Origin: Nanobdellota archaeon
GTDB lineage: Archaea; Nanobdellota; Nanobdellia; Pacearchaeales; GW2011-AR1
NCBI GenBank assembly: GCA_027364705.1
Contig: DAHXOU010000029.1
Location: forward strand, 1 to 55,861
DNA: 55,861 bases
Reading direction: 5' to 3'
Shown: positions 3,019 through 52,266 of the stretch, piece by piece
Layout: the number at the start of each line of letters is the position of its first letter
Numbering within the stretch: position 1 is the stretch's first letter
Position numbers and translations under genes: made by a program
Notes under the pieces: model-generated
Database searches by the model: none
Seen by the model: the letters and a program-made list of their open reading frames with translations, nothing else
What the model was told of the DNA's origin: nothing

Positions 3019-4560
3019 ATGGAAAATCAAGAAAAAAAAGAGGAATTTGATTCTTCTCTCAGACTGATTATTAAATCTTCTCTGTTTGTTTTTCTTGGAG
3101 TAATTTTTTCTAAAATATTCGCTTATCTTTACAGAATTATAATTGCAAGATCTTTTGGCCCCGAAGTATACGGTTTATTCTCCCTCGCCTTAATCGTTTT
3201 CCTGTGGTTTATTTCTCTCTCTGCTCTTGGTTTTTATGATGGTGTGTTAAGATTTATCCCTTTTTATCGAGGACAAAAAAAGATAAATAATATTCGTTAT
3301 CTTTTCAAGTTTTCTTCAATTGTATTGATAATTTCAAGTATCATTTCTGGGATTTTACTTTTTTTGTCTTCAGAAATAATTTCTATTAAACTTTTTCATA
3401 ATTCGGATTTGATAATCTTCTTGAAAGTTTTTAGTTTTATGTTGCCTGCTTATATTTTTGCTTATTTCTTCTTAACTATAATGCAAGCATTTGAAAAAAT
3501 AAAAATTCATTCATTCTTTTCCGATTTTTTAATTAATCTCATTAAACTAATCTTGATCTTATTTTTTATTTTTATCGGGCTTAAAACAAACGCAGTGGTT
3601 TTTTCATACTTCTTTGGAATAATCTGTTTGTTGCTGATTTCTTATTTTTATTCCCGAAAAAAGATTTCAGAAATATTCGAAAAAACTAAACTAAAGAAAA
3701 AAATAAAAGAAGAAGTTAGAAAGAACTTATTCTCTTATTCTGTTCCACTTCTTTTTTTAAGTATACTCTCTAGTCTTTTCCTCTATATTGATTCTTTTGT
3801 AATTGGTTATTTTTTGGATGCAGTACAGGTTGGAATTTACAATGCTGCAATTCCAATAACTGAATTTTTATCTCTCTTTCCTTGTTTATTCATGAGACTT
3901 TTTTTCCCGATGATAACCAGAAAATTCTCTCAGAAAGATATACCTTTTATAAAAAATTTAAGCATTCAAATTGAAAAGTGGATTCTTATGGTGAACCTAC
4001 CCATTTTTGCATTGATGTTTTTATTTTCTGGAGCTTTTATAAACATTCTTTTTGGTCCACAATATATCGCCGCAGAAACTGCCCTGAGGTTTTTATCCGT
4101 GGGTCTTTTCTTTTTTTACTCTATTGCCTTAGTATCAAATAATCTTTTATCTATGCTTGGAAAGTCGAAGATTATTCTTATAGATACAATAGTAACCTCG
4201 GTTGTTAATCTAATCTTATGTTTGATTCTCGTTCCAATTTATGGGATTAATGGTGCCGCATTTGCAACAATGATAATGTACATTGTTCTTAGTCTGGTTT
4301 TTTTCATCCAATCAAGACATTATTTCTCAGGAATGTCTTTGGTTCCGAAGTTTCTTAGGATATTTTTGTCCATACTAATTCCTACAATTTTGCTTGCAAT
4401 AATTAAACAATTCATCAGGGTAACTTTGATTAGCATAATTCTTGAAGGATTAATCTTCTTTTCCCTTTATTTATTCCTCCTCTTCTTTACTAAAAGTTTA
4501 GAAAAAAATGATTTCATGATTTTGAGCTCTATAAAGAAAAAAATATTTCATTCTTCTTGA
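3019..4560 (+). CDS. Wzx/MOP-superfamily oligosaccharide (polysaccharide biosynthesis) flippase
   Basis: 513 aa with about 12-14 predicted TM helices. The N-terminal IIKSSLFVFLGVIFSKIFAYLYRIIIARSFGPEVYG region is typical of polysaccharide-biosynthesis/MOP flippases. Confidence 0.75.
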   Translation: MENQEKKEEFDSSLRLIIKSSLFVFLGVIFSKIFAYLYRIIIARSFGPEVYGLFSLALIVFLWFISLSALGFYDGVLRFIPFYRGQKKINNIRYLFKFSSIVLIISSIISGILLFLSSEIISIKLFHNSDLIIFLKVFSFMLPAYIFAYFFLTIMQAFEKIKIHSFFSDFLINLIKLILILFFIFIGLKTNAVVFSYFFGIICLLLISYFYSRKKISEIFEKTKLKKKIKEEVRKNLFSYSVPLLFLSILSSLFLYIDSFVIGYFLDAVQVGIYNAAIPITEFLSLFPCLFMRLFFPMITRKFSQKDIPFIKNLSIQIEKWILMVNLPIFALMFLFSGAFINILFGPQYIAAETALRFLSVGLFFFYSIALVSNNLLSMLGKSKIILIDTIVTSVVNLILCLILVPIYGINGAAFATMIMYIVLSLVFFIQSRHYFSGMSLVPKFLRIFLSILIPTILLAIIKQFIRVTLISIILEGLIFFSLYLFLLFFTKSLEKNDFMILSSIKKKIFHSS

Positions 4561-14797: not shown

Positions 14798-16051
14798 ATG
14801 AAGATAGTATTAACAACTCTCCCTAAAGAAGGGAGTGCATTCAATTGGGTAACTCCAAAATATTTTTATCCTGATGATTCCAAATTTGTTCCCTTAGGTT
14901 TACTTTCTTTAGCATCTAATCTACCTTCTGAGCATGAGATTACTGTTTTGGATCCAAATAGTTTTTGTTGGTCTATCGATAAAACAATAGAAGAAATTGA
15001 AAAACAAAGACCAGATATTTTAGGTATCTCTGCTGTAACACTTAAGGCATACTCTATGGTTAAAATATTAAAAGAAACTTCGGCTCCTTACAAAATTGTT
15101 GGCGGTCCGCATACAACGAACAATTCTTCATCTATTCTAAATCAGGGAGCAGATGCAACTTTCATTGGACAACTAGCAGATTTAGAATTTGTAGATGCTA
15201 TAAAAAATAAACCCAAAGGAATTGTCTATTGTAATACTAACCTTAATCAAATAAAATTTCCAAACAGAAAGTTTATCGACATAAATTTTTATTATCCTTC
15301 ATCTATATTATTTTCAGCAAATAATAGGATGTCTACCTTTTCTAGTGTTGGTTGTCCACATCATTGTAGTTTTTGCGATGTTCAAACAAAAAAAATTCAA
15401 AGAAAATCTCCAGAATCTCTTTTAGAAGAAATGATCTATTTGCAGAAAATAGGTGCTAAGAGTATTCATCTAATGGATGATAACTTTAATACTAATGAAT
15501 CTTATTTAGAATCAATTTGTTCTGAGATGGATAAAAAAGAATTTTATTCTGAATGGAGTGGGAGAGGTCAGGCAAAAATAAGTCCGCATATAGCTAATAT
15601 GTTAAGTGAACGAAATTTTAAGAGAATTCATGTGGGGTTTGAATCTCTCTCGGATAAAACTTTGAAATTTTTTAATAAACCACAAAACTTTTCTCAGATA
15701 CAAAAATTTTGTGAGACTACAAATAAATATGGAATAGACATCCTGGGATATTTTATTATTGGTGCTCCTACAGAAACCGAAGAAGATAAACATACAATGG
15801 CACAAAAGATAAATGATCTCGGGATAAAATATCCTTATATTAACATTTTACAGCCTCTGCCAAATACCGAATATTATTCTTTCTTATTAAATGAAGGAAT
15901 CTACAAAAAAGATTATTGGGCAGAATATATTTCAAATCCTGTGCCAGATTTTATGTTACCTTTTCCTTACGGAGAAAAAAAGTGGCAAGAAGATGCAGAA
16001 TTTGTAAACGAGATGATAAACTTGTTTAAAGAAAAAAATGAAAATGAATAA
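14798..16051 (+). CDS. B12-binding-domain (class B) radical SAM enzyme
   Basis: 417 aa. N-terminal PLGLLSLASNL...IVGGPHTT, followed by SSVGCPHHCSFC. 14-nt overlap with the downstream GT9 gene. Confidence 0.85.
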   Translation: MKIVLTTLPKEGSAFNWVTPKYFYPDDSKFVPLGLLSLASNLPSEHEITVLDPNSFCWSIDKTIEEIEKQRPDILGISAVTLKAYSMVKILKETSAPYKIVGGPHTTNNSSSILNQGADATFIGQLADLEFVDAIKNKPKGIVYCNTNLNQIKFPNRKFIDINFYYPSSILFSANNRMSTFSSVGCPHHCSFCDVQTKKIQRKSPESLLEEMIYLQKIGAKSIHLMDDNFNTNESYLESICSEMDKKEFYSEWSGRGQAKISPHIANMLSERNFKRIHVGFESLSDKTLKFFNKPQNFSQIQKFCETTNKYGIDILGYFIIGAPTETEEDKHTMAQKINDLGIKYPYINILQPLPNTEYYSFLLNEGIYKKDYWAEYISNPVPDFMLPFPYGEKKWQEDAEFVNEMINLFKEKNENE

Positions 16052-16988
16052 AATTTTAATCATTAAAACAGGTTATTCTGAACTATTAGACAAAGAAAAT
16101 AATTCCCGCAAAGTTAGTCTTGGAGATATTTTAAGAACTACTTGTTTATTGCATTTATTCAAAAAAGATAATGTATCTTGGGTAACCGATGAATCTGCTT
16201 TTCCTCTTCTAGAAAAAAATCCTTATATTCATCGAGTTCTTCCATATGATTTAACAACAACTTTTCAGTTAATGGCCGAAGAATTTGATACCGTGATTAA
16301 TCTTGAAAAAACCCCTGGAATTTGTGCTCTTTCAGATAGAATTCGTGCAAGACGGAATCGGTATGGTTTTACTTTCAATAGTCAATCTGGAACTGCAGAA
16401 CCTTATGCTATGGCTTCGAACATATTAACTGTATGTGCAGACCCCCATCTTAAAAAAACAAATAAAAAAACTGCACAGGAACTTTTATTTGAAACAGTTG
16501 GAGAAACATGGAACAAAGAAGAATATGTTTTGGGATATACTCCAAAAACCGATGAAATATTTGATGTAGGTCTTAATACTCAAGTTGGGCAAAAATGGCC
16601 AACTAAATCGTGGCCTAGTAATCACTGGGATAAATTAGAAAGTTTATTATCGGAGAATAAAATAAAAACAAGTAGACAGGAAAAAAATAACCCCCTTATT
16701 CTCGGAGATTTGTTTAAATATATTGATTGGATAAATTCTTGTAAAGTTCTAGTTAGCAATGATAGTCTTGGATTGCACTTGGGAATTGCTCTGAAAAAAA
16801 AAGTTTTTGGGTTATTTGGTCCAACTCCTCATTTGGAAGTTTATTTTTATGGCCGAGGTAAAGCAATCCTACCCGAACCAGTTCCTTCCTGTCTGCCTTG
16901 TTTTGAAGGAAAATGTCTGAGGGAAAGAAATTGTTTGGAAGATATATCTCCAAATACAATCTATAATGAGGTGTTAAAAATAATTTAA
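16038..16988 (+). CDS. Glycosyltransferase family 9 (heptosyltransferase-family) protein
   Basis: 316 aa. ILIIKTG...GDILRTTCL N-terminus, VSNDSLGLHLGIALKKKVFGLFGPT donor-domain motif, and the C-terminal Cys motif CLPCFEGKCLRERNCLEDISP typical of GT9. The start may be at 16044. Confidence 0.75.
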   Translation: MKMNKILIIKTGYSELLDKENNSRKVSLGDILRTTCLLHLFKKDNVSWVTDESAFPLLEKNPYIHRVLPYDLTTTFQLMAEEFDTVINLEKTPGICALSDRIRARRNRYGFTFNSQSGTAEPYAMASNILTVCADPHLKKTNKKTAQELLFETVGETWNKEEYVLGYTPKTDEIFDVGLNTQVGQKWPTKSWPSNHWDKLESLLSENKIKTSRQEKNNPLILGDLFKYIDWINSCKVLVSNDSLGLHLGIALKKKVFGLFGPTPHLEVYFYGRGKAILPEPVPSCLPCFEGKCLRERNCLEDISPNTIYNEVLKII

Positions 16989-19925: not shown

Positions 19926-20888
19926 ATGTCTAAGAAGGTTTTAATTTTGGGTGGAGCGAGATTCCATGGATTTCAGTTAGCCAAAAAATTATCTTCAGAG
20001 GGAAATTTGGTTTATGTTTTAAATAGGGGAAATTTTCGAGATAAATATCCTTCTTCAATCAACTTCCTAAAAGGAGATAGAGAAGACCCTCTTTTTCTCA
20101 AAGAAATATTTTCTCGCAATTATTTTGATTGCATTTTTGATAATAATGCTTATCTCCCTCGGCAGATAGGATTAATTTCTGATTACATTAAGAATAAATG
20201 TAATCATTATATTTTTACCAGTAGCGCTTCTGTTTATCTTAAAAATTTTTCAGACCATTTATTGACTGAGAAAGAAGCTACAGGGATATCAAATGGAAAT
20301 TATAATCCTTTTTTTGAACAATATGCTTTGAATAAATTTGAATGTGAAAATAAAATTAAAAAAATAGGGGGAAAAAAATACACTATCCTTCGCACCCCAA
20401 ATGTTTTTGGTGAGGGAGACTTTTCTGGAAAACTTATTTTTTTTAATACCCGAATAGAAGACGGAGGAAATATTCTTTTAGAAAAAGAAGTGAATCAAGT
20501 CGGAATAATCTATGTTAATGATCTCGTAAATATTTTAGCTAAAACTATGAACTGTGAAAGATGTTTTGAAAAAACACTAAATATCTCCTGCCCTACTTTT
20601 ATCAATAATTTTTTCAGTGAAATATATGGGGAAAAGTGTTTAGAAAAATTAACTTTCATGTCTTCTAAAGAAATGTGGGGAAATAATTATTCTCTACCTT
20701 TTGAGTGGAATCCTCCTCTTGAAACTTCTCTCATTCAATCATTAATTGGAGAAACGAATTACACTCCTATTTCTGAGTGGGGAAAAAAAACATTAGTTTG
20801 GGAGAAAAATAATCTCGGGGATATTAAAAGACCCGAATTTTCTAATCGGGGAAAAGAATTAAACTTAATTAAAAAATACAATGGTTGA
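19926..20888 (+). CDS. NAD-dependent epimerase/dehydratase (extended SDR)
   Basis: 320 aa. Rossmann N-terminus LILGGARFHGFQLAKKL, TSSASVY, and a catalytic YALNK (YxxxK). Confidence 0.65.
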   Translation: MSKKVLILGGARFHGFQLAKKLSSEGNLVYVLNRGNFRDKYPSSINFLKGDREDPLFLKEIFSRNYFDCIFDNNAYLPRQIGLISDYIKNKCNHYIFTSSASVYLKNFSDHLLTEKEATGISNGNYNPFFEQYALNKFECENKIKKIGGKKYTILRTPNVFGEGDFSGKLIFFNTRIEDGGNILLEKEVNQVGIIYVNDLVNILAKTMNCERCFEKTLNISCPTFINNFFSEIYGEKCLEKLTFMSSKEMWGNNYSLPFEWNPPLETSLIQSLIGETNYTPISEWGKKTLVWEKNNLGDIKRPEFSNRGKELNLIKKYNG

Positions 20889-21762
20889 AAATATAATTCT
20901 AAGAACTTCTTACTCCCAAATTCCAGGGGGGAAATTAAAATCTAATTTCGGGGATTTACTTCGGGTTTCTGTTTTAACAGAATGTATTGGAAAAGATTTT
21001 TTATGGCTGACGGATAAAAGATCCATAAATCTATTAAAATATTTTATAGACAAAGAAAAAATTATTTCTATCGACGATATAGAACCAGATAAAAATTTTA
21101 ATGCAATCAACATATACAATTTAGATAATTATATTTCAACTCCCGATTTATTTAATCGTATTTCTGGGAATTGGAGAGGATACATACCAAATAAAGAAAT
21201 TTTAAAACCAGAAAATAAATTAATAGAAGCTATCTCTCCCTACAAACCGCATAGAATAAATAAAAGTTTGCAAGAATTAATTGTTGAAGGATTGGGTTTT
21301 ACATGGAAAGGACAAGATTACCCGTTTCCTAAAACAGATATAACTGAATTTGTAGATATCGGATTAAACTGGTCTATGCCTTCAGACTGGAAATCTAAAA
21401 CTTGGCCACGAGAATATTGGAACGAACTTGAAGAAATATCAAAAAAAGATTATACTATTTCTTGGCAAGAGGGATTAGATAATATTGATGATTACGTCCA
21501 TTGGTTGTCTTCTTGTAAAATAATAATCACAGGAGAAACTCTCGGACTGCATTTAGCATCTGCTTTAAGAAAAAAAGTTTTAGCTATCCTTGGACCGATG
21601 AAAAATACTGAATTTCCTTATAATCGGTTGACAAGAATCTATCCTGCTGAAAGAGATTGTATGCCTTGTGATTCTCCAATTTGTAATCAAGGAGAAAATT
21701 GTTTAAACGAAATAAAACCGCAACAAATTAAGAAGATTATCGATGGTATACTTAGTACCTAA
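20881..21762 (+). CDS. GT9-like glycosyltransferase (shorter paralogue)
   Basis: 293 aa. GDLLRVSVL N-terminal motif, ITGETLGLHLASALRKKVLAILGP, and CMPCDSPICNQGENCLNEIKP. Parallels the genes at 16038 and 36857. Confidence 0.6.
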   Translation: MVENIILRTSYSQIPGGKLKSNFGDLLRVSVLTECIGKDFLWLTDKRSINLLKYFIDKEKIISIDDIEPDKNFNAINIYNLDNYISTPDLFNRISGNWRGYIPNKEILKPENKLIEAISPYKPHRINKSLQELIVEGLGFTWKGQDYPFPKTDITEFVDIGLNWSMPSDWKSKTWPREYWNELEEISKKDYTISWQEGLDNIDDYVHWLSSCKIIITGETLGLHLASALRKKVLAILGPMKNTEFPYNRLTRIYPAERDCMPCDSPICNQGENCLNEIKPQQIKKIIDGILST

Positions 21763-35164: not shown

Positions 35165-35278
35165 TAATTACTCCTGTCATTAGCTCTTTAAAGGATTTAT
35201 CTACGAAAACTATATGTTTTCAAAATATATATCAGAGCTGACATAAAACCTTAAAAATAATTCAATTATTCCTTTTTG
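35165..35278. promoter_or_regulatory. Divergent promoter region with two TATA-box candidates
   Basis: CTTTAAAG (35186-35193) lies about 25 nt from the minus-strand start at 35164. CTTAAAAATAA (35250-35260) lies about 24 nt from the ATG at 35279. Confidence 0.45.
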
Positions 35279-36817
35279 ATGAAGATTACCCTCATATCGA
35301 CTTCAACTTTCCCTTCTGACCAGGGAATCAGAACAATTTCGAGCGTTCTAAAAAGGGAAGGATATGATGTAAAACTTGTTTTTATGTCTCTGAGCGAAGA
35401 TTATTCAATAAATTATACTTTGCACGAGTTAAAACAACTTTTAAGAATTTGCAGAGACAGTCAGTTAATTGGAATAAATTCTTTTGCTTCGACTTCTCAA
35501 AGAGCTTTAAGAATAATTTCTTTTCTAAAAAAGAATCTTAATGTTCCAATAGTTTATGGAGGAGTTCATGCAACAATTTCTCCTGAAGACTGCATAAATG
35601 TTTCCGACCTTGTTTGTGTTGGAGAAGGAGAAGAAGCAATAGTTGAATTGGCGAAGGCGATAGACAAAGAAAAAAATTTCGATAAGATAAAAAATTTATG
35701 GATAAAAAAAGAAGAAAAGATAATTAAAAATCCTGTGAGAAATATTTTAGATAATTTAGATTCACTTCCTCTCCCAGATTATAATATCGAAAATCATTTT
35801 ATTCTTGAAAAAGGAAAATTAAGAAAATTTCGAGAAGAAGATTTATCTGGTCAGATTTTTTTTCTCACTGGAAGAGGTTGCCCTTATGGTTGTGACTACT
35901 GCAGTAATTCTTTTTTTAATAAGCTCTATGAGGGAAAAAGAAAATCAATTTTGAGATGGCATTCCCCAGAATACATTATCGATGGCATTTTGGAATTAAA
36001 AAAGAAATTTCCAAAAACTCTTGGTTATTTTGATATTCGTGACGACACTTTTTCTCTGCGCCCACTTGATGATATAAAAAAATTCTGTAATCTATACAAA
36101 GAAAAAGTTAAGATGAGATTCAAATGTCTTGCAGACCCGAAAACAGTCAGCGACGATAAAGTTAAACTTCTTGTTGATGCGGGATGTACAGATATAATTA
36201 TTGGTATTCAAGGAAGTGAAAGAACTAATCAGGAAATTTATCACAGAAATCAAAAAGATGAAGATGTTTTGCGTTCTGCAAAAGTTCTCAATAAGTACAA
36301 AGATAAACTTGCAGTTATGTACGATGTCATCACATGTAACCCTTATGAAAAACCAGAAGATATCATAAATCTAATCCGCCTCCTTCAGAAAATTCCAAAA
36401 CCATATTATCTTTCAGTTAACAATCTTGTTTTTTTTCCAGGTTCCCAATTATACCGTAGGATAATGGACGACGATAATTTGAAAAAAGAAAGAAATGCAA
36501 CTTACAAATTAAATTACTGGGACCGAGCAAAACATATTCGACTAAAAAAGAAAAATGCCTATCTTGTTTTAATCTTAAATTTAATGCGGGGTTCAGTTAC
36601 TAAAAAGCGATTTGGTTTTATGCCTACTTCTTTAATAAACTGGTTTTTGGTTCCTGCAAGAGTTAAAAAAAATTTAAGAAATCCATTTACAACTAAAATA
36701 ATTTTGAGACTTGTTGAACTTATTGATTTAATCCGAGAAAAAATATTGAAGCCATTTTACAGATCATTACCCGTAAATTTTAAGGTCTGGTACGATAAAA
36801 CGAGATATAGAGTTTAA
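35279..36817 (+). CDS. B12-binding-domain (class B) radical SAM enzyme
   Basis: 512 aa from the ATG at 35279 (the track start at 35276 is a TTG). VYGGVHAT...CVGEGE, followed by TGRGCPYGCDYC. Confidence 0.85.
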   Translation: MKITLISTSTFPSDQGIRTISSVLKREGYDVKLVFMSLSEDYSINYTLHELKQLLRICRDSQLIGINSFASTSQRALRIISFLKKNLNVPIVYGGVHATISPEDCINVSDLVCVGEGEEAIVELAKAIDKEKNFDKIKNLWIKKEEKIIKNPVRNILDNLDSLPLPDYNIENHFILEKGKLRKFREEDLSGQIFFLTGRGCPYGCDYCSNSFFNKLYEGKRKSILRWHSPEYIIDGILELKKKFPKTLGYFDIRDDTFSLRPLDDIKKFCNLYKEKVKMRFKCLADPKTVSDDKVKLLVDAGCTDIIIGIQGSERTNQEIYHRNQKDEDVLRSAKVLNKYKDKLAVMYDVITCNPYEKPEDIINLIRLLQKIPKPYYLSVNNLVFFPGSQLYRRIMDDDNLKKERNATYKLNYWDRAKHIRLKKKNAYLVLILNLMRGSVTKKRFGFMPTSLINWFLVPARVKKNLRNPFTTKIILRLVELIDLIREKILKPFYRSLPVNFKVWYDKTRYRV

Positions 36818-36856: not shown

Positions 36857-38755
36857 ATGAATATTCTTATAATAAAAATAGGTGCCTTGGGAGATGTCCT
36901 CCGAACTAGTTTTATTGCTCAGGCACTTAAAGAAAAATATCTAAATAGAAAAGAAAGAAAATTTCCCGATATTTATTGGATAACAAGTAAAAACGCAGCA
37001 CCTCTTTTTGCTAATAACCCTTATGTTACTAAAACAATAATTTCTGAGAATAGAAATTCATTAAGAAAGATAAATTTCGATTTAATAATCAATTTAGAAG
37101 AAGATGAAGATAACTGTAGATTTGCTGCCTCTTTTAATGCAAAAGTAGTAGGATTTAATTATTGTAATGAAAAAATAGTTCCCACTCCAACGGCAAAAGA
37201 ATGGTTTGACATGTCTATCCTCGGTAAAAAACCAGAAAATGATATATTGAAAAAGAAAAATAAAAAAACTCACCGACAGATAATTTCTGAAATTTTAGAA
37301 GTAAAAGATTATCAGAGATATGAACCATTCTTAAGACTCACTCAGCGCCAGAGAGATTTTGCGGAAAATTTTCTCAGGAGACATAATCTTTCAAGAAAAG
37401 ATTTGATTATAGGAATAAATACTGGTTCAGCAGATCGATGGCCAAAACAGTTGTCTGTAAAAAAAACAGTTGAACTTATCAATAAACTTTATCGTCAGTT
37501 TAATGCAAAAATTTTGCTTTTTGGTGGCCCCGAAGAAATAGTTAGAAATGCCGAGATACAAAAACTTTCAAAATCTCCTGTTATTGATACTGGATGCGGA
37601 AATAATCTTTTTGAATTTCCTGCAATGATTAGTATCTGCAATACTCTCATTACTAGTGATACATTCGGTCTTCATGTTGCACTTGCTCTTAAAAGAAAAA
37701 CAATTTGTTTAATTGGACCAACTTCTTCTTCGGAGATCGATATGTATGGGCTCGGGGAAAAAATTATTGCCGATTCTCCCTGTGTTTGTTGTTATAAACG
37801 CGACTGTAAAAGCATGGAAAAAATAGATTTGAATAAAATAGTTGATGTAATAAAAAAAAGTATCAATACAAAAATAAGTATATTAATAACCGCATTTAAG
37901 GAACCAAATATTTCTAAGGCAATAGAATCCTGTCTCAATCAAAAAACAAATGCAGATTATGAAATAATTATTTCTGCACCCGACGATGAAACTTTGGAGA
38001 TTGTAAAAAAATATGCTCAATCAGATAAAAAAATAAAATGGATCAAAGACCCCGGAAAGGGAAAAGCTTACGCATTGAATTTTGTATTTTCACAGGTAAA
38101 TACAGATATACTAATCCTTACAGATGGAGATGTTTTCATTAATGAAAATGCAGTGGAAGAAATTTCTAATTTATTTATGAATCCTGAAATTGGATGCGTT
38201 TCAGGAAGGCCTGTTCCAATGGAACGCAAAAATAAAAAATATGGTTATTGGGCACACTTCTTATTTGACTCTGCACATAGACTAAGAGATAACTCTTATC
38301 AGTCGGGAAATTTTATAGAATGTTCTGGATATTTATTTGCTTTCAGAAAACAAAAAATTAATCAAATTCCTGTTGATGTTGCAGAAGATACAATTATTCC
38401 TTATCTTCTCTGGCAAAAAGGATACAGGATTGGTTATGCTGCAGATGCAAAAGTTTTTGTCAAAAATGCAAATCGGCTTAATGATTGGATAAAACAAAAA
38501 ATAAGGACCCACAAATCCCATATGAAAATTTCAAAATATGTTGATACAGAAACAACTCCTCAGGTAAAAACTTTCAAAAATGAATTGAAGGGAATTTTTT
38601 GGTTATTCCATTATCCTGAGACATTAAAAGAATTATTCTGGAGCAGTCAGTTAGCTTTATTCCGTTTTTACACCTGGTTTAGATATTATATTGACTTAAT
38701 CATTCTGCATAAATATTATCAGGATGGATGGGAAAGAATTGAGAGCACAAAATGA
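36857..38755 (+). CDS. Fusion protein: GT9 (heptosyltransferase-family) domain plus GT2 glycosyltransferase domain
   Basis: 632 aa. The GT9 part is aa 1 to about 335: ILIIKIGALGDVLRTSFI, ITSDTFGLHVALALKRKTICLIGPT, CVCCYKRDC. The GT2 part is aa about 339-632, nt 37871-38752: ISILITAFKEPN...LTDGD...ED..., followed by hydrophobic C-terminal segments. Confidence 0.75.
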   Translation: MNILIIKIGALGDVLRTSFIAQALKEKYLNRKERKFPDIYWITSKNAAPLFANNPYVTKTIISENRNSLRKINFDLIINLEEDEDNCRFAASFNAKVVGFNYCNEKIVPTPTAKEWFDMSILGKKPENDILKKKNKKTHRQIISEILEVKDYQRYEPFLRLTQRQRDFAENFLRRHNLSRKDLIIGINTGSADRWPKQLSVKKTVELINKLYRQFNAKILLFGGPEEIVRNAEIQKLSKSPVIDTGCGNNLFEFPAMISICNTLITSDTFGLHVALALKRKTICLIGPTSSSEIDMYGLGEKIIADSPCVCCYKRDCKSMEKIDLNKIVDVIKKSINTKISILITAFKEPNISKAIESCLNQKTNADYEIIISAPDDETLEIVKKYAQSDKKIKWIKDPGKGKAYALNFVFSQVNTDILILTDGDVFINENAVEEISNLFMNPEIGCVSGRPVPMERKNKKYGYWAHFLFDSAHRLRDNSYQSGNFIECSGYLFAFRKQKINQIPVDVAEDTIIPYLLWQKGYRIGYAADAKVFVKNANRLNDWIKQKIRTHKSHMKISKYVDTETTPQVKTFKNELKGIFWLFHYPETLKELFWSSQLALFRFYTWFRYYIDLIILHKYYQDGWERIESTK

Positions 38756-39294
38756 ACAAAGCAATTTTCTTGGACAGAGACGGAACAATAAATGTAGATA
38801 AACATTATATTCATAAAGTAGAAGATTTGGAATTGATTCCGTTTGCAACAGAAGGGATGAGACTTCTTTCTAAAAATTATTTGTTGATTATTGCGACTAA
38901 TCAATCTGGAATAGGAAGAGGATTATATTCTTTAGAAGATTATTTTGTGGTTAGGGAAAAACTAACTCAAATTTTAAATCAAGAAAAAATAAAAATTTCG
39001 GGAGAATATTATTGTCCTCATCACATGGAAGGAGTTGGAGAATATAAACTAGATTGTAATTGCAGAAAACCTAAAACAGGAATGTTAGAACGGGCTTCAA
39101 AAGATTTTAATTTGGAATTAAATGAATGCTGGATGATTGGAGATAAATTATCTGATATAATGGCTGGAAAAAATGCAGGATGTAAAACAATACACGTTCT
39201 TAGCGGACAAACAGAAAAACCAATTTTGTCCGCAAATTTTGTTGCTAAGAATCTTTTAGATGCAGCAGATTATATTCTGAAAAATAATTACTGA
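38752..39294 (+). CDS. gmhB: D-glycero-D-manno-heptose 1,7-bisphosphate phosphatase (HAD-IIIA)
   Basis: 180 aa. AIFLDRDGTIN, ATNQSGIGRG, the Zn-site pattern CPHH...CNCRKPKTGM, and GDKLSDIMAG. ATGA overlap with the upstream gene. Confidence 0.85.
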   Translation: MNKAIFLDRDGTINVDKHYIHKVEDLELIPFATEGMRLLSKNYLLIIATNQSGIGRGLYSLEDYFVVREKLTQILNQEKIKISGEYYCPHHMEGVGEYKLDCNCRKPKTGMLERASKDFNLELNECWMIGDKLSDIMAGKNAGCKTIHVLSGQTEKPILSANFVAKNLLDAADYILKNNY

Positions 39295-40229
39295 TACTTT
39301 TTCTTATCCATCAAAGAAATTCTTTTCTTCAATTCCTTGAGCCTAACAGAGTAAGTACCCTTTTTCTCTACGGCAATTCCTGCAGAATAATTTCCTAATT
39401 TTGCCGCTTCTTCAAGAGATGAACCCGCGGCAAGTGCAAGTGCAACTGTTGCAACAACAGTATCTCCTGCCCCTTGAACATCGTAAACTTCCTGAGCATA
39501 AGTTGGAATGTCGGTTACATTATCCGAGAATAATGTCATTCCTCTTTCTCCTCTTGTAACCAAAATATTTGTTTCCAAATTTTTTTGAAGTTTCTTTCCA
39601 GCATTGTAAACTTTATTCACCCTTGACATTTCTAAAGCCTCTTTTTCATTAGGAATAACTAACAGAGTGCGCTTGTAAAGATTTTTATTGGAGGGTTTCG
39701 GATTTACTACTATCTTTTTTTTATACTCTTCCAGAAAATTCATGGTATCTTTGTTTACTGCTCCCTTATCATAATCCGAAATTACAATTATGTCTGCTCT
39801 CTCAGCATATTTTTTAAGAGTCTCTTTTGTTTCTTTGGAAAACACTTTCTTGGATTTTTCTTCGTGGTCAATCCTTATTAATTGCTGACCATTGCCGATA
39901 ATTCTTATTTTAGAAACAGTCATAGAATCTTCATCGAGACGATATTCAATTTTATTTTCTTTAAGAATATTTTTCAAAATCTCTGCTTCAGGATCTTTTC
40001 CTATAAATGAAAATATACTTACTTCTCCACCAAGAGAAGAAATATTTGACGCAACATTTCCTGCACCCCCCATTTTAGATTGTTCATATTTTTTTACTAC
40101 TACTGGAACTGGTGCTTCGGGGCTAATTCTACTAACTTCTCCGTCAATATACTTGTCAAGCATTATATCTCCGACAACTACTATCCTTTTATTATCAAAC
40201 TCTTTTAGAATATCTAGTAACGTTCCCAT
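39288..40229 (-). CDS. hldA: D-beta-D-heptose 7-phosphate kinase (stand-alone HldE domain I, PfkB family)
   Basis: 313 aa. IVVVGDIMLDKYIDGEVSRISPEAPVPVV and GGAGNVASNISSLGG match the HldE/RfaE kinase domain. GAGDTVVA is the PfkB motif. Confidence 0.85.
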   Translation of the reverse strand: MGTLLDILKEFDNKRIVVVGDIMLDKYIDGEVSRISPEAPVPVVVKKYEQSKMGGAGNVASNISSLGGEVSIFSFIGKDPEAEILKNILKENKIEYRLDEDSMTVSKIRIIGNGQQLIRIDHEEKSKKVFSKETKETLKKYAERADIIVISDYDKGAVNKDTMNFLEEYKKKIVVNPKPSNKNLYKRTLLVIPNEKEALEMSRVNKVYNAGKKLQKNLETNILVTRGERGMTLFSDNVTDIPTYAQEVYDVQGAGDTVVATVALALAAGSSLEEAAKLGNYSAGIAVEKKGTYSVRLKELKKRISLMDKKKYQ

Positions 40230-40326
40230 TTATTTAACGGGAAAATTAGACTATAAAAGCATTATTGCACAATTTACTATTCTTCAGAATAATAACAAAT
40301 AAAAAGCATATTAAACATTTATACGC
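40230..40326. promoter_or_regulatory. Divergent promoter region with two TATA-box candidates
   Basis: TATAAAA (40253-40259, read on the minus strand as TTTTATA) lies about 27 nt from the start at 40229. AAATAAAAA (40297-40305) lies about 26 nt from the GTG at 40327. Confidence 0.4.
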
Positions 40327-41934
40327 GTGGAAGAGATAAAAGGAGAACTAAGGGAACCAATATCCAATAAAGAAATTGAAAAAAGGATAAAAAAATTGTC
40401 CGGATTTTTCTTTGGATGGGTTAAGGATAATTATGACAAGGCATTTATTGCAGTTTTAGTCTTATCTGTTTTAATCAGAATCTATTTTCTATCAATTTCC
40501 ATTCATCAGCCTGTTTGGTGGGATTCGGCAGATTATCTTACTGAAGCTAAAGTTCTTGCAGGAAACCTTAATATTCCTTACTACTTTACTCCCCGTAGAA
40601 CTTTTCTTCTTCCATTACTTTGGGCTGGTTTGCTGAATCTTGGATTCGAAGAAATTTCGTTCAGAATTTTAGAATTAATATTTTCAATAGCAGTAGTTCC
40701 TGCAACTTACTTAATTGGAAAACAATTATTTGATAAAAAAATCGCTTTGATTGCCTCTTTTTTATCTTCGGTATTCTGGATGTATCTTTTTTATTCTAAC
40801 AAACTTATGACCGAAATTCCGACTCTTGCGCTTTTTTTATTTTCAGTTTATTTTTTCTGGCAGGGTTATACAAAGAAAAATGAAAAAATGTTTATCTGGT
40901 TCGGAATTTTTCTAGGACTAGCGTTTTTGGCAAGAGCAGGAACAATTGTAATGTTTGCTATCTTTCCAATATTCCTTTTAATTACAGAAAAATTGAAATT
41001 CATTAAGAGAAAATATTTGTGGTTCGGAGTATTGGCTGTTCTTGCAATTATGGCCTTCTTTTTTATTTTCACTTCTATAAAACAAGATGTAAATGCAATT
41101 TCTTACTTTTTGGCATTAACTCCCGAAACCAGCGGAGGCAATCCAAGGTTTTCTAACCTTCTTGGATTTCAAGGTATATCTGAATATTTTTCTTTAATGC
41201 CTCATTATTTTGGTTGGGTTCTTTTATCCATTTTTGGAATTAGTGTAATAATCTTCTTGTTTGAATTATTCCTAAGTTTTGACATGATTATAAAAAGAAA
41301 AGATACTTCTCGAGATAAATATCTTTTTTTATTCCTTCTTGCATTTGTCCCGTTTATATTTCAGGCAATGTTTTATCATCATACAGAAGACAGATACCTA
41401 ATGAATGCATTCCCTGCATTTTTTCTTATTCTTTCAATAGGCCTAGTAAAAATTGCAGAGAAATTAAAAAAATACAAAAAATATCTCGGATTATTTTTTA
41501 TATTGCTAATCTTAGCAGTCGGCGCATTTCAGCAGATTACTCAAGCAAATGCAATTATCGAGAGCAAAATTAATTCATATCAGGAAGTAAAAGATTCTGC
41601 AATATGGATTAAAGAAAATTCTAATACAACAGCTATCGTTTTCTCAGCTTCAGTTCCTCAGACTACTTATTACGCCGAAAGAGAAACTTATAATTTCCTT
41701 ACAGAAGATATTAACCAATCTTATTTCGAACAAAAAATGTATGATTTAAAACCAACTTTTTTAGTTTTGTCAGTATTCGAACCTCATTCACAATGGATTT
41801 ATACTTATCCAGAAAAACATCCTAATTTATTAATTCCTGTAAAAGCATATAATCAAAATGACCAACCTGTTTTAATTGTCTATCAATTTAATTATGCAGC
41901 TATGTCTGATTTAATTTCAAATGAAACCAAATAA
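40327..41934 (+). CDS. GT-C-fold membrane glycosyltransferase (ArnT / PMT_2 / GT39-GT83-like)
   Basis: 535 aa with a GTG start. About 11 TM helices with WWDSADYL in the first external loop, then a soluble C-terminal domain of about 130 aa. This layout is typical of lipid-phosphate-sugar-dependent GT-C enzymes. Confidence 0.7.
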   Translation: MEEIKGELREPISNKEIEKRIKKLSGFFFGWVKDNYDKAFIAVLVLSVLIRIYFLSISIHQPVWWDSADYLTEAKVLAGNLNIPYYFTPRRTFLLPLLWAGLLNLGFEEISFRILELIFSIAVVPATYLIGKQLFDKKIALIASFLSSVFWMYLFYSNKLMTEIPTLALFLFSVYFFWQGYTKKNEKMFIWFGIFLGLAFLARAGTIVMFAIFPIFLLITEKLKFIKRKYLWFGVLAVLAIMAFFFIFTSIKQDVNAISYFLALTPETSGGNPRFSNLLGFQGISEYFSLMPHYFGWVLLSIFGISVIIFLFELFLSFDMIIKRKDTSRDKYLFLFLLAFVPFIFQAMFYHHTEDRYLMNAFPAFFLILSIGLVKIAEKLKKYKKYLGLFFILLILAVGAFQQITQANAIIESKINSYQEVKDSAIWIKENSNTTAIVFSASVPQTTYYAERETYNFLTEDINQSYFEQKMYDLKPTFLVLSVFEPHSQWIYTYPEKHPNLLIPVKAYNQNDQPVLIVYQFNYAAMSDLISNETK

Positions 41935-42406
41935 TAAAATAAAAACATTTTCTGAAATAAGTGATGTTGTAGCAGATATAAGAAAAAAAAATTTAGGAGA
42001 AAAAATAGTCACCACCAACGGAGCTTTTGACTTATTTCATCTTGGTCATTTATATTCTCTTATGGAAGCAAAAAAATACGGAAATATTCTTGTCGTAGGA
42101 TTAAATTCAGATTCTTCAATAAAAAAATATAAATCTCTTGATAGACCAATAGTTCCTCAAGAAGAAAGAGCAGAAATTTTGTCTGCACTTGAAATTGTCA
42201 ATTATGTTGTTATGTTTGATGAACCTGACAATCTGAATTTCTTGGAAGCAGTAAGACCTGATTATCATGTAAAATCAAAAACTGGATACAAAGGAATAGA
42301 AGAAGAAGTTATAAAAAAATATGGTGGCCATATAATCTTAATAGATGATGTTCAAGAGATGTCTACAACAAAAAGAATAGAGAAGATTCTCCGTTTATAT
42401 CATTAA
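41921..42406 (+). CDS. hldC: D-beta-D-heptose 1-phosphate adenylyltransferase (stand-alone HldE domain II, cytidylyltransferase fold)
   Basis: 161 aa. TNGAFDLFHLGHLYSL (HxGH), VVGLNSDSSIKKYKSLDRPIVPQEERAEILSALEIVNYVVMFDE. Closely parallels HldE/RfaE domain II. Confidence 0.85.
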   Translation: MKPNNKIKTFSEISDVVADIRKKNLGEKIVTTNGAFDLFHLGHLYSLMEAKKYGNILVVGLNSDSSIKKYKSLDRPIVPQEERAEILSALEIVNYVVMFDEPDNLNFLEAVRPDYHVKSKTGYKGIEEEVIKKYGGHIILIDDVQEMSTTKRIEKILRLYH

Positions 42407-43453
42407 TTTTTTAATTTCTTCAAAAACATTTTCAACACTAACCCCTTCCATTATTTTTCGTATTTCTTCTTTGCTCATCTTAATTGGTTTTCCATCATAT
42501 TTGTAATATTCAAGTTTATTCTTTAAAATTGCAGGATTTTTTACGGTAATAAACGGTTTATTATAGGGATAAACTGTTTCATTGAAAGTTGGTGTTTCTA
42601 TAACTAACTGGTTACTTACTTCCATTGCAGAAGCTATATGCATTAAAGCTGTATCAACACTCAGAAAAATTTTACATCTTCTAGCAACTGATGCTGTTTC
42701 TTTGATATTGTTTGTTTTTACTATTTTTATTCTGTTTCTATCTATTTCACTTATTTTTTCGTTTTCTTTTTCTTCCTCTTTTCCAAACAATAAAATAGAA
42801 ATGTCTTCGTTAAAGTTAAGTAATTTTTCTGATAGTTCTATATAATTTTTTAATGGCCATCTTCTACTGGATAGATTTTTAGTAGAACCAGAACCAATAT
42901 GAAATCCAATAATCTTTTTCCCACCAAGATTGTTCTCTCTAATAAATTCTTTCGCAAATTCCATCTCTTCCCCCGACAGAAAAATTTCATACTTGGGATT
43001 CTTTAATTTCCTTTTTCCTAAGAGCCCAATAAAATCAAGGTTATTTTCCGCACATTGTTTTGAATAATCTTCTTCAATAAAATTATTAATAAGAATATTT
43101 TCTACAAAATTATTTTTCCCATATCTATGACTAAATCTTTTTTTGGCTCCAATAAGTTTAGAGATTATTCTGTATTCTATTTTACTCTGGGGGAAAGTAT
43201 TTATTGAGATATCATAATTTTCTTTTCTTAATTTTCTGCAGAAATCCATCGTCTTTATCGGGCCCTCTTTGATCATATTAAAATAGATTACCTTCGTTAC
43301 ATATGGATTATTTTTCAATATTTCTTCAGCCCCCTTCCACATTACAAGGACATTAATTTCTGCTTCGGGGAAATTATTTCTTAATTCGTGCAAGAGCGGA
43401 GTTGCCATAATAGTGTCTCCTATTCCTGCCAGTGAGATAACAATAATCTTCAT
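42395..43453 (-). CDS. Glycosyltransferase family 9 (heptosyltransferase-family) protein
   Basis: 352 aa. MKIIVISLAGIGDTIMATPLL N-terminus, IGFHIGSGSTKNLSSRRWP, and FLSVDTALMHIASAM donor-domain motif. Confidence 0.8.
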   Translation of the reverse strand: MKIIVISLAGIGDTIMATPLLHELRNNFPEAEINVLVMWKGAEEILKNNPYVTKVIYFNMIKEGPIKTMDFCRKLRKENYDISINTFPQSKIEYRIISKLIGAKKRFSHRYGKNNFVENILINNFIEEDYSKQCAENNLDFIGLLGKRKLKNPKYEIFLSGEEMEFAKEFIRENNLGGKKIIGFHIGSGSTKNLSSRRWPLKNYIELSEKLLNFNEDISILLFGKEEEKENEKISEIDRNRIKIVKTNNIKETASVARRCKIFLSVDTALMHIASAMEVSNQLVIETPTFNETVYPYNKPFITVKNPAILKNKLEYYKYDGKPIKMSKEEIRKIMEGVSVENVFEEIKKLMI

Positions 43454-50716: not shown

Positions 50717-51253
50717 ATGCCACAAGCAGTAACTCATTTTTTGATTCCAGTAATCTTGTTAGAACTATTCCGACATTTTTTTGTAAAGAATAAAAAATCT
50801 TTTCCTATTCATTATGTTTTTATCGGAGGTTTAGCCGGCTTAATTCCTGATTTTGACATAGCTCTTTATTATATCCTAAGTTTCTTCGGATTTACTTATC
50901 AAGAAGTTCACAGAACTTTTTTGCATACCTTATTTATTCCATTAATCTTTGTAATTTTATCTTTTCCCGTAGAGAAAATTAAAATAAAAAAATTAGGAGA
51001 GTATCATCTTAAACTGAAAAATATCTTCCTTGTTATTGCATTTGGTGTTTTAATTCACCTTATTCTTGATGCAACTATCTCTGGATTTATAATGCCTTTT
51101 TATCCTTTCTTTCTTTTTCCTGTAGGATTAAATTTAGTTAATCTTTTTCCTCTTCAATGGCAAAATAGCATAATTCCTACTCTTGATGCAATTTTATTAA
51201 TTATTTGGATAATTCACATAGAGCTAAAACATAAAATTTCTGATTTTTTTTAA
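50717..51253 (+). CDS. Membrane-bound metal-dependent hydrolase-like protein (YdjM/DUF457 family)
   Basis: 178 aa. N-terminal THFLIP, GLIPDFD, HRTFLHT, and HLILD motifs across 4-5 TM helices. Confidence 0.65.
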   Translation: MPQAVTHFLIPVILLELFRHFFVKNKKSFPIHYVFIGGLAGLIPDFDIALYYILSFFGFTYQEVHRTFLHTLFIPLIFVILSFPVEKIKIKKLGEYHLKLKNIFLVIAFGVLIHLILDATISGFIMPFYPFFLFPVGLNLVNLFPLQWQNSIIPTLDAILLIIWIIHIELKHKISDFF

Positions 51254-52266
51254 AACATCAAAGAAAATATTTTTAAAATATCTACTTCAAAAATTATAAA
51301 TCCCAAGACGATAATTAGAATTTGGAATAAATTTATCAGATGAACTACATCCTTCTCGTAAACTTTTTTATTTGGCTTAATTTTCTTAAGGAGATATATT
51401 GCTAAATGCTCCAAACCATAAATTTTTTTGTAAGGCATTTCGATGCTTCCATCTTCATTTACTTTTGCGAAACTTTCTTTTTTTAGTCTCCCTCTTGCCT
51501 TGAGAATTGTTTCAAGAATATATGGAATAAAAAAGAAAATTGCAATCTTTTCAATATCTCCTAAAATAGCAATTATTGCAATAAGTGCTCCTACTGGATA
51601 TGTTAAAGTATCTCCGGGAAAAACTTTTGCAGGATGTTTGTTAAAAATATAAAATGCGAATAAACAGGCAACCATTACCAATCCTATTATACTTAGCCAT
51701 CTGTTTCCCATGAGATAGGTTACAACTGAAAGCCCAGATAGAATTAAAATTCCCTGACTTGTTTCTAATTCATTATATCCTGCAAGAAAATTTAATGTTG
51801 AAGCTGCTCCGACAATCCCCAAAGGGATTAATAGGAAAGGATAAATTGCACCTAATTCTATTCCAGCAATTTCAGAATGCCCTGCATTTATTACCACTAA
51901 TGGAAGTGAAGCAAAAATCAAAAATATAATCCTGATTGGTTTATTGAGCCCGATTTTCCATCCAAGAATATCGTCGGTAAAACCAATAAATGAAACAATT
52001 AATATCACACTCATTAAAGAAAATATTTCTATTATATCTTCATATGATTGAAAATAAAAAGTTTTAACTGCAATATAAGTTAACAGCCCTAGAATAAAAC
52101 CCATAATCACACAAACTCCTCCTGCTTCTGCAACTATCCCTCCATTGATTTTGTTCATATCCTTTCCTGCTAATCCAACTTTTTTTGCTCTTTTAATCCA
52201 GATGGGAAGTGCAAATAAAGACAATAAAAATCCAAAAAATATTGGAATAAACAAAAGAATTTGCAT
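51250..52266 (-). CDS. Polyprenyl-phosphate HexNAc-1-phosphate transferase (MraY/WecA/Alg7-AglH-like GPT family)
   Basis: 338 aa with about 10 TM helices. GFTDDILGW Asp-Asp motif and FPGDTLTYPVG. The ATG lies 1 nt after the aglB stop. Confidence 0.8.
   Translation of the reverse strand: MQILLFIPIFFGFLLSLFALPIWIKRAKKVGLAGKDMNKINGGIVAEAGGVCVIMGFILGLLTYIAVKTFYFQSYEDIIEIFSLMSVILIVSFIGFTDDILGWKIGLNKPIRIIFLIFASLPLVVINAGHSEIAGIELGAIYPFLLIPLGIVGAASTLNFLAGYNELETSQGILILSGLSVVTYLMGNRWLSIIGLVMVACLFAFYIFNKHPAKVFPGDTLTYPVGALIAIIAILGDIEKIAIFFFIPYILETILKARGRLKKESFAKVNEDGSIEMPYKKIYGLEHLAIYLLKKIKPNKKVYEKDVVHLINLFQILIIVLGFIIFEVDILKIFSLMF

Follow-up and report, generated by a model that had tools for sequence, protein, structure and literature searches.

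A dispersed ADP-heptose gene set associated with GT9 glycosyltransferases in the aglB glycan island of a DPANN archaeon

Heptose genes in the window

We analysed a stretch of 55,861 nucleotides, here called the window, which comprises contig DAHXOU010000029.1 of GenBank assembly GCA_027364705.1 from a Nanobdellota archaeon and corresponds to contig C43 of this 628-kb assembly of 49 contigs (genome G000). The window contains three genes of the ADP-L,D-heptose pathway, gmhB, hldA and hldC, located in a large glycan island that also encodes the oligosaccharyltransferase AglB. As described below, two genes on other contigs complete the predicted set, the kinase is of archaeal ancestry, and the pathway probably feeds glycosyltransferases of family GT9 that build a surface glycan. 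The three genes were identified as follows.

38752..39294, plus strand: gmhB, phosphatase; TIGR00213 157.4 bits (cut-off 149.6, passed), NF006506 170.6 bits
39288..40229, minus strand: hldA, stand-alone PfkB kinase of 313 amino acids; TIGR02198 317.1 bits (cut-off 345), PF00294 144.5 bits
41921..42406, plus strand: hldC, stand-alone adenylyltransferase of 161 amino acids with the cytidylyltransferase fold; TIGR02199 141.6 bits (cut-off 181.5)

Families were assigned from NCBIfam and Pfam profile scores, and the best matches among solved structures were compared by aligned motifs. The GmhB protein was most similar to GmhB of E. coli (3L8E/2GMW, 118 bits), with the catalytic and zinc-loop motifs aligned. 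It retained DRDGTIN, TNQSGI, CPHH...CNCRKP and GDKLSD, including the DxDxT signature and the cysteine/histidine zinc loop of HAD-IIIA phosphatases, and scored higher with the model for the beta-anomer (170.6 bits) than with the model for the alpha-anomer (145.2 bits). The best solved match to the kinase was HldA of B. cenocepacia (4E84, 166 bits over residues 11-300), with RISPEAPVPVV and GAGDTV aligned, and the next-best family, ribokinase, reached only 97 bits against 317.1 bits for TIGR02198. The best solved match to HldC was HldC of B. pseudomallei (5X9Q, 87.6 bits), with TNGxFDxxHxGH (FHLGH), DRPI and STT aligned; glycerol-3-phosphate cytidylyltransferase scored 30, and TIGR02199 led the non-heptose families by more than 80 bits.

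By profile scores and solved-structure matches, all three predicted enzymes fall in heptose families and not in the ribokinase or glycerol-3-phosphate cytidylyltransferase clades, which an initial annotation, made from the sequence alone, had named as the alternative. That annotation had correctly recognised the gmhB motifs, the stand-alone kinase with GAGDTV and the stand-alone adenylyltransferase with its HxGH and DRP motifs. A check of the open reading frames (ORFs) also bore out its strands and gene order, with the kinase on the minus strand, gmhB and hldC on the plus strand and a gene for a GT-C membrane glycosyltransferase between the kinase and the adenylyltransferase.

The kinase and adenylyltransferase are encoded by separate ORFs, one on each strand and 1.7 kb from each other, rather than by a bifunctional hldE gene. 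The hldA and gmhB genes converge and overlap by 7 nt, hldA and the GT-C gene diverge across a spacer of 97 nt, and the start of gmhB overlapped the stop of a GT9-GT2 fusion gene by 4 nt. The hldC gene overlapped the stop of the GT-C gene by 14 nt and is for this reason probably co-transcribed with it. A GDP-heptose route would involve a GHMP kinase (HddA) and an NTP_transferase (HddC); in the profile scan the kinase belonged to the PfkB family (PF00294) and the transferase to the CTP_transf_like family.

Completeness of the pathway

The absence of gmhA from the window had been noted previously, with the suggestion that the rest of the genome be searched for this gene and for hldD. Both were found. 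The whole-genome search for gmhA gave no match in the window and a single match on contig C39 (G000:C39:19105-19692, minus strand), which encodes a protein of 195 amino acids; its top models were NF010546 (201.7 bits, equivalog cut-off 276) and TIGR00441 (197.4 bits, equivalog cut-off 209), in both cases with a score under the cut-off. The hldD gene was located on contig C4 (G000:C4:14983-15906, minus strand), and its product of 307 amino acids scored 240.5 bits with TIGR02197 (cut-off 274.6) and 106.7 bits with GalE. The three short-chain dehydrogenase/reductase (SDR) proteins of the window, one of which had been put forward as a possible HldD, scored only 45-56 bits with TIGR02197 and were rejected for this role.

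The predicted five-gene ADP-heptose set is thus complete in the genome and spread over three contigs, and the genome does contain the isomerase gene whose general absence had been named as a reason to abandon the pathway. For annotation, the lesson is that the absence of gmhA from the window meant only a scattered operon, and that the HldD role should not be given to the SDR proteins of the island. It was also noted that the region around gmhA (G000:C39:18821-21578) places it between a GyrB-like ORF of 628 amino acids and a DUF1653-type ORF of 95 amino acids, beyond which were a zinc-ribbon-like ORF of 110 amino acids and a GyrA-like ORF of 873 amino acids.

Archaeal setting and ancestry of the kinase

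The genome is about 90% complete (89.6%), with an estimated contamination of 0.25% and an even GC content between contigs (0.30-0.35). Because the whole assembly lacked a small-subunit rRNA gene, the domain of life was settled via the TATA-binding protein (TBP), a family with matches only in the four archaeal control genomes. The TBP gene was identified at G000:C12:18425-18940; its two repeats matched in adjoining stretches, and the first match spanned one in-frame TGA, which probably reflects a match extending beyond the start of the ORF. No tRNA or Rfam matches were found in the window. With TBP in the genome and AglB/STT3 in the window, the setting is archaeal, of the DPANN type.

The closest homologues of the kinase were 55-61% identical to it and came from metagenome-assembled genomes (MAGs) whose named sources were "archaeon", Nanoarchaeota, Pacearchaeota and Woesearchaeota; they carry the HldE annotation at NCBI and JGI. 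In a scan of species-representative genomes, bacterial kinases reached only 36-44% identity. The similarity of the kinase to bacterial enzymes, 36-46% identity at most, does not bear out the high similarity described in the initial annotation. The 119 kinase homologues comprised 96 fused HldE proteins (about 465-475 amino acids) and 23 stand-alone proteins.

To describe the distribution within the phylum, we used a sample of 301 evenly chosen genomes from 225 genera, all of one class, and called the kinase at E<=1e-40. It was present in 75 genomes (~25%) and 60 genera, in frames of both fused and stand-alone length, and in 3 of the 14 genomes of the window's own family. In an unrooted tree of 132 kinase domains, inferred by a quick search, the window kinase clustered with 98% support in a clade of 38 DPANN proteins, 32 of which were fused, as were its immediate sisters. 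The DPANN groups and a few bacterial sequences (Cloacimonadota, Vulcanimicrobiota, Planctomycetota and Spirochaetota) formed a group with 94% support that was nested among bacterial phyla.

The nearest neighbours of the kinase in both searches and phylogeny are thus archaeal rather than bacterial, and the kinase is not a recent bacterial import. Of the earlier proposal that the genes were acquired horizontally from bacteria, what stands is an ancient origin, which is plausible because bacterial phyla surround the DPANN kinase groups in the tree. We infer that DPANN archaea acquired the kinase from bacteria long ago and have since kept it and exchanged it among themselves, a direction that is plausible rather than read from the tree, which is unrooted.

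A recent transfer from a Gram-negative bacterium, or a bacterial contig present as contamination, would agree with the pathway and GT9 being hallmarks of Gram-negative bacteria, with TIGR02198 and PF01075 matching only bacteria among the control genomes, and with the nesting of the DPANN kinase groups among bacterial phyla, a few bacterial sequences alongside, in the unrooted tree. It is already contradicted by the higher identity to DPANN than to bacterial kinases, by the presence of the kinase in a quarter of the phylum, by the even GC content and low contamination, by the AglB and AglH genes on the same contig, and by the same synteny in archaeal MAGs, where flanking genes are 57-71% identical. 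We regard it as hardly credible.

GT9 and GT-C glycosyltransferases

Four GT9 domains were identified in the window, including but not limited to the one at 42395-43453, and all passed the PF01075 cut-off of 22 bits.

42395..43453, minus strand: GT9 of 352 amino acids; PF01075 62.9 bits, TIGR02195 (WaaF type) 72 bits, under the equivalog cut-off
36857..38755, plus strand: fusion of GT9 (N-terminal) and GT2 (C-terminal), 632 amino acids; PF01075 37.5 bits, PF00535 71.3 bits; translationally coupled to gmhB
16038..16988, plus strand: short GT9 of 316 amino acids; PF01075 38.7 bits; family motifs kept
20881..21762, plus strand: short GT9-like protein of 293 amino acids; PF01075 27.9 bits; G-D and xWP kept, donor-site motif ETxxxH
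40327..41934, plus strand: GT-C membrane glycosyltransferase (PMT_2/ArnT-like, 535 amino acids); PF13231 54.9 bits

The GT9 protein at 42395-43453 retained G-D, RRWP and DTxxxH, and its solved matches were 3TOV (38.8 bits) and WaaF 1PSW (32.8 bits). Scores above the gathering threshold and the family residues G-D, xWP and D-[ST]-x-x-x-H were found across the four domains; we take these residues to have the roles known from WaaC. Separate GT9 and GT2 genes adjoined hldA or hldE in six relatives (loci L099, L100, L113, L121, L137 and L140).

Among the 301 genomes, 69 contained both the kinase and GT9, 6 only the kinase, 23 only GT9 and 203 neither, corresponding to an odds ratio of ~100. The co-occurrence in 69 of 75 kinase-positive genomes and the adjacency of GT9 in 28 of 44 loci (see below) point indirectly to ADP-heptose as the putative donor of the GT9 enzymes in the window, for which the scores with all equivalog models were far under the cut-offs. 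The GT-C gene is a frequent neighbour of hldA or hldE in the sub-lineage of the window; it adjoined hld genes in L099, L100, L101, L121, L137 and L140, and no solved relative of its product was found by sequence. As a heptose-specific partner it was rejected, since orthologues (E<=1e-40) were present in 48 of the 301 genomes and only 17 of these 48 contained the kinase.

The aglB island

The window is one large glycan island, which contains genes for SecDF, a Wzx-type flippase, about a dozen radical S-adenosylmethionine (SAM) enzymes and glycosyltransferases of families GT2, GT4 and GT9, as well as an AglH-like GT4-family phosphotransferase and an AglB/STT3 protein of 935 amino acids. The oligosaccharyltransferase, the initiating transferase and the flippase are all present, with GT2, GT4 and GT9 genes lying between them.

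3019..4560, plus strand: Wzx/MOP-type polysaccharide flippase; PF01943 98.5 bits; at the other end of the island from AglB
51250..52266, minus strand: AglH/GPT-like GT4-family polyprenyl-phosphate sugar-1-phosphate transferase; PF00953 91.3 bits
52268..55075, minus strand: AglB/STT3 oligosaccharyltransferase, 935 amino acids; PF02516 45.6 bits, and PF21436

The AglH-like protein, which is likely to be the initiating enzyme of the lipid-linked glycan, was 60% identical to the product of the gene adjoining aglB in relative L100 (GCA_043810775.1, an NCBI archaeal MAG), where a flippase of the same family (PF01943) was located between GT2 and AglH.

The distance between aglB and hldA in the window is 12 kb. 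When an STT3 profile was used, 19 of the 75 genomes with the kinase had aglB no more than 10 kb from hldA; the number rose to 29 at a limit of 20 kb and to 34 at a limit of 30 kb. Both genes were located on one contig in 39 genomes, in 34 of which they were within 30 kb of each other, and on contigs of at least 100 kb with hldA this was the case in 16 of 25. The chance expectation for such proximity is 6-10% (p<=4e-15 against a chance of 10%). The heptose genes thus belong to the aglB island as a rule and not by an accident of one genome. A tblastn search with the AglB protein of the window had missed most of these cases (2 of 44 loci) because AglB is divergent, and the STT3 profile was used instead.

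Rearrangement of the hld cassette

In L100, the genes were arranged in the order nucleotidyltransferase/GT4 fusion, B12 radical SAM, GT2, GT9, gmhA, a gene for 297 amino acids, gmhB, hldE, PMT_2 GT-C, GT4, GT2, GT9, GT2, flippase, AglH-like gene and aglB. The same module was seen in three relatives, and the flanking genes in L100 were 57-71% identical to those in the window. In place of the gmhB-hldE-GT-C arrangement of the relatives, the window contains gmhB, an inverted hldA, the GT-C gene and then hldC. The split state on opposite strands is a local rearrangement of the gmhB-hldE-GT-C cassette. Only short AT-rich chance matches were found when repeats flanking the inverted kinase gene were sought as a trace of the event. 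It was also noted that the gene for a sugar-1-phosphate nucleotidyltransferase-GT4 fusion of 629 amino acids adjoins a B12-binding radical SAM gene in the window (33275-36817), and that this pair was kept in the same order in L100, with 63% and 71% identity.

The genes within 10 kb on either side of hldA were surveyed in 44 loci.

hldC near hldA: 33 of 44 loci
GT9 near hldA: 28 of 44 loci
gmhA near hldA: 23 of 44 loci
gmhB near hldA: 18 of 44 loci
hldD near hldA: 16 of 44 loci
GT-C near hldA: 7 of 44 loci

These counts indicate a compact operon in most relatives, of which the genome studied here has a scattered version. Separate hldA and hldC genes are nothing unusual as such, being seen in bacteria, where the solved structures come from split systems, and in this phylum, where the split state is common, a further point for annotation.

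The HldC protein of the window was 50% identical to domain II of the sister protein P0014, and its best matches in the full library were stand-alone proteins of 161-169 amino acids with 53-55% identity. In a quick tree it was placed with stand-alone forms, outside a clade of fused domain II sequences with 95% support. However, an approximately unbiased (AU) test did not reject joining it to the fused clade (p 0.63), and the constrained tree scored better, which shows that the tree search was poor. The split may thus have arisen by fission of a fused hldE gene or by replacement with a stand-alone hldC. The kinase itself, as judged from its position in the tree, descends from fused relatives.

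Other variants were observed among the relatives. The gene for 297 amino acids, with a faint ArgZ-like Pfam match, was located between gmhA and gmhB in four loci (L100:8583-9476, L109:8509-9423, L132:8604-9509 and L140:10933-11745), none of which had a close hldD within 10 kb on either side; the genome studied here contains hldD and no homologue of this gene. In the Woesearchaeota relative L101 (4440-8490), the heptose genes were located beside genes for an RpiB-like isomerase-cytidylyltransferase fusion, a second PfkB kinase (29% identical to that of the window), a class II aldolase, a cupin and a transaldolase, which may form an additional sugar-nucleotide pathway that provides its own precursor. 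In L109, L110 and L132 (G132, G221 and G147), one operon holds a pair of HldA paralogues separated by a few kb, in the order hldA-gmhA-...-hldA-hldC-gmhB, a hint that two heptoses are made or that the gene was duplicated recently.

Proposed function

Starting from the gene identities, the complete set, the archaeal ancestry, the co-occurrence with GT9 and the clustering with aglB, all of which are observed here, we consider it fairly probable that ADP-L,D-heptose is made by a native pathway and used by GT9 enzymes to build a surface glycan that contains heptose and is probably N-linked. In this pathway, GmhA would isomerise sedoheptulose-7-phosphate, HldA would phosphorylate C1, GmhB would remove the 7-phosphate, HldC would adenylylate the product and HldD would epimerise C6, giving ADP-L,D-heptose. 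The AglH-like enzyme would start a lipid-linked oligosaccharide, to which the four GT9 enzymes of the island would add heptose on the cytoplasmic side of the membrane. Once flipped, this oligosaccharide would most probably be transferred by AglB to asparagine residues of surface proteins. Of the two explanations offered in the initial annotation, that of a previously unrecognised archaeal heptoglycan is therefore the better one, strengthened by the co-occurrence with GT9 and the linkage to aglB, at the expense of a recent bacterial acquisition.

Several observations weigh against this interpretation. Four of the five pathway enzymes score just under the NCBIfam equivalog cut-offs. Both gmhA and hldD are located outside the island, and gmhA, between gyrB and gyrA, is far from the other glycan genes. 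The GT9 proteins of the window are remote from characterised heptosyltransferases (33-39 bits to solved ones), and their donor is for this reason a prediction; the co-occurrence statistics ignore phylogeny. Clustering with aglB demonstrates membership in an island and is not proof that the heptose-bearing glycan is the substrate of AglB. Furthermore, neither transaldolase nor transketolase was matched in the genome, as discussed below, and we know of no glycan from any member of this class that has been chemically analysed.

The target of the GT9 enzymes could also be one that AglB does not handle, such as a membrane glycolipid or lipoglycan analogous to the inner core of bacterial lipopolysaccharide (LPS), an O-glycan that the PMT_2 enzyme completes on the outside of the cell, or a protein heptosylated directly in the cytoplasm, as by the TibC and Aah enzymes that act on autotransporters in bacteria. 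The GT9 domain upstream of gmhB is fused to a membrane-synthase-type GT2 domain (Glyco_tranf_2_3, Glyco_trans_2_3, Glyco_transf_21) from families that include lipid-glycosylating enzymes, and the GT-C gene between hldA and hldC recurs beside hld genes in 7 of 44 loci, although it was not specific to genomes with the kinase (17 of 48 with orthologues). In 5 of the 39 genomes with both genes on one contig, hldA and aglB are more than 30 kb apart; set against this is the strong linkage of aglB across the phylum. Genes for lipid A or 3-deoxy-D-manno-oct-2-ulosonic acid (Kdo), at which no search was aimed, would not be expected in an archaeon that has AglB and an AglH-like enzyme. Protein heptosyltransferases of the TibC type are a known class (PMC4358343), but the best NCBIfam matches of the GT9 proteins were heptosyltransferases II, I and III, with no sequence tie to TibC as against WaaC/WaaF. 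On balance we find a non-AglB target rather unlikely, though worth keeping in mind beside the N-linked fate.

A different product of active enzymes, for example heptose carried by CDP or UDP, the D,D-epimer alone, or the nucleotide of another sugar, would be compatible with the scores under the equivalog cut-offs, with the location of hldD away from the island and with the two kinase paralogues per operon in some relatives, which hint at product diversity. Tang et al. (Science 2024), as relayed in PMC11461863, found CDP- and UDP-heptose among the products of many HldC-type enzymes. In the summary given there, NTP-promiscuous enzymes are marked by STTR5, an arginine at position 5 of (F/L)xxGxSTT, and the motif is not strictly required. 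The HldC protein of the window reads DVQEMSTT where 5X9Q reads FEHDRSTT, with methionine and not arginine at the STTR5 position, and since it lacks the arginine that marks makers of CDP- and UDP-heptose, ADP is the likelier nucleotide. All five canonical steps are encoded, the HldD protein scores 240 bits with GalE far behind, and the kinase is of the PfkB/HldA type (beta-anomer) and not the GHMP kinase HddA of the GDP-alpha-heptose route. We therefore hold another product to be improbable.

Going further than the reading of a native pathway, we tentatively suggest that DPANN archaea of the Nanoarchaeia class could place L,D-heptose on their surface proteins, by means of GT9 enzymes, a family otherwise associated with the LPS inner core, acting on dolichol-linked oligosaccharides and AglB acting on asparagine, with the precursor derived from the host where transketolase and transaldolase are absent; we see this as possible, though short of probable. 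If true, it would explain what archaeal heptose synthesis is for and imply a surface glycan that is partly host-fed. DPANN cells live attached to hosts; the glycans on their surface probably play a part in attachment and in recognition. The locus and the phylum-wide counts point to a testable use of archaeal heptose, namely GT9-dependent heptosylation in the DPANN aglB island.

Source of sedoheptulose-7-phosphate

Transketolase and transaldolase are the usual sources of sedoheptulose-7-phosphate. A profile search of the 89.6%-complete genome gave no match to either transaldolase (PF00923) or transketolase (PF00456). One or both enzymes were present in 58 of the 75 kinase-positive genomes of the phylum and neither in 17, which include the genome studied here and its family member G218. 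The presence of transketolase or transaldolase was modestly associated with the kinase (odds ratio 3). Transaldolase taken alone was rejected as a companion of the pathway, since it was found in 28 of 75 kinase-positive genomes as compared with 63 of 226 others (p 0.15). It was also noted that the window (22847-24000) contains a short E1alpha/E1beta-like pair of thiamine enzymes, which was not matched by the transketolase N-terminal profile, so that it is no evident stand-in for the usual enzymes. The genes for the precursor may lie in the 10% of the genome that the assembly lacks, or the precursor may come from the host or from an unrecognised route; its missing origin is a small but real puzzle that concerns metabolic dependence on the host.

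The same gap would be expected of a decaying relic, a broken operon that receives no sedoheptulose-7-phosphate and makes no heptose. The spread of the genes over three contigs, the inversion of hldA relative to the ancestral cassette and the retention of the kinase in only 3 of 14 family genomes also fit such a relic. However, the five ORFs are intact with their catalytic motifs, gmhB and hldC each overlap a glycosyltransferase gene and are translationally coupled to it, and four GT9 genes persist in a genome of 628 kb, a size at which genes without a use usually disappear. Moreover, both enzymes are also missing from 16 further genomes with the kinase, and this points to a regular supply from another source, for example the host. 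Decay is thus very improbable.

Comparison with known systems

The fused HldE cassettes of DPANN relatives (L100 and the JGI contig L099) are close counterparts. Their kinases are 57-60% identical to that of the window, and they share the nucleotidyltransferase/GT4 fusion, the B12 radical SAM, GT2, GT9, gmhB and PMT_2 GT-C genes as neighbours, as well as the AglH-AglB end of the island. They differ in having a single hldE gene with gmhA inside the cassette, whereas the window has a separate inverted kinase gene and an hldC gene past the GT-C gene, and its genome has gmhA and hldD elsewhere and lacks the gene for 297 amino acids.

The bacterial ADP-heptose pathway consists of the same five families (GmhA, PfkB-type HldA, HAD-IIIA GmhB, HldC of the cytidylyltransferase fold and the SDR protein HldD) with the same catalytic motifs, it too can have separate kinase and adenylyltransferase genes, and its proteins are the best solved matches. 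There the genes serve an LPS core locus, whereas here they are found in an aglB island in an archaeon, which would have neither outer membrane nor lipid A, with hldA and hldC on opposite strands, a GT-C gene between them, and gmhA and hldD on other contigs. Compared with Burkholderia HldC, the enzyme of the window has methionine in place of the STTR5 arginine.

Gram-positive bacteria make GDP-D-glycero-alpha-D-manno-heptose for S-layer glycans by means of GmhA, HddA, GmhB and HddC (Aneurinibacillus). This is the closest functional analogy, in which heptose is made for a surface-protein glycan in cells that lack an outer membrane, but it employs a GHMP kinase and an NTP_transferase guanylyltransferase, and the genes studied here encode a PfkB kinase and a transferase of the cytidylyltransferase fold.

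The initial annotation had held that ADP-heptose and GT9 enzymes are not a standard part of archaeal glycobiology. This view is outdated, to judge from commentaries on Tang et al. (Science 2024) and from the heptose in the N-glycan of Thermoplasma acidophilum (PMC11407970). As summarised in PMC11573728 and PMC11461863, Tang et al. reported that archaea, viruses and eukaryotes possess functional enzymes of heptose synthesis, sorted the nucleotidyltransferases into mono-, di- and tri-domain types, and (PMC11573728) showed that enzyme sets make ADP-heptose in vitro, with Methanococcus maripaludis S2 named; the role of archaeal heptose is there called "elusive" (PMC11573728). The sets outlined in those summaries resemble the present one in combining an isomerase, a kinase, a phosphatase and a mono-domain nucleotidyltransferase in an archaeon, and differ in that the role is elusive there, whereas here the genes are tied to GT9 and aglB across a DPANN class. 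In the literature available for searching, nothing relevant was found on GT9 or heptose in DPANN.

The N-glycan of T. acidophilum contains D-glycero-D-galacto-heptose (PMC11407970, PMC12448462), the one chemically demonstrated case known to us of a heptose on archaeal asparagine-linked glycans and a precedent for the fate proposed here, although the isomer and the phylum are different. Taken together, the system is of a known kind, the archaeal ADP-heptose enzymes published in 2024, here with a gene set that has been rearranged and dispersed.

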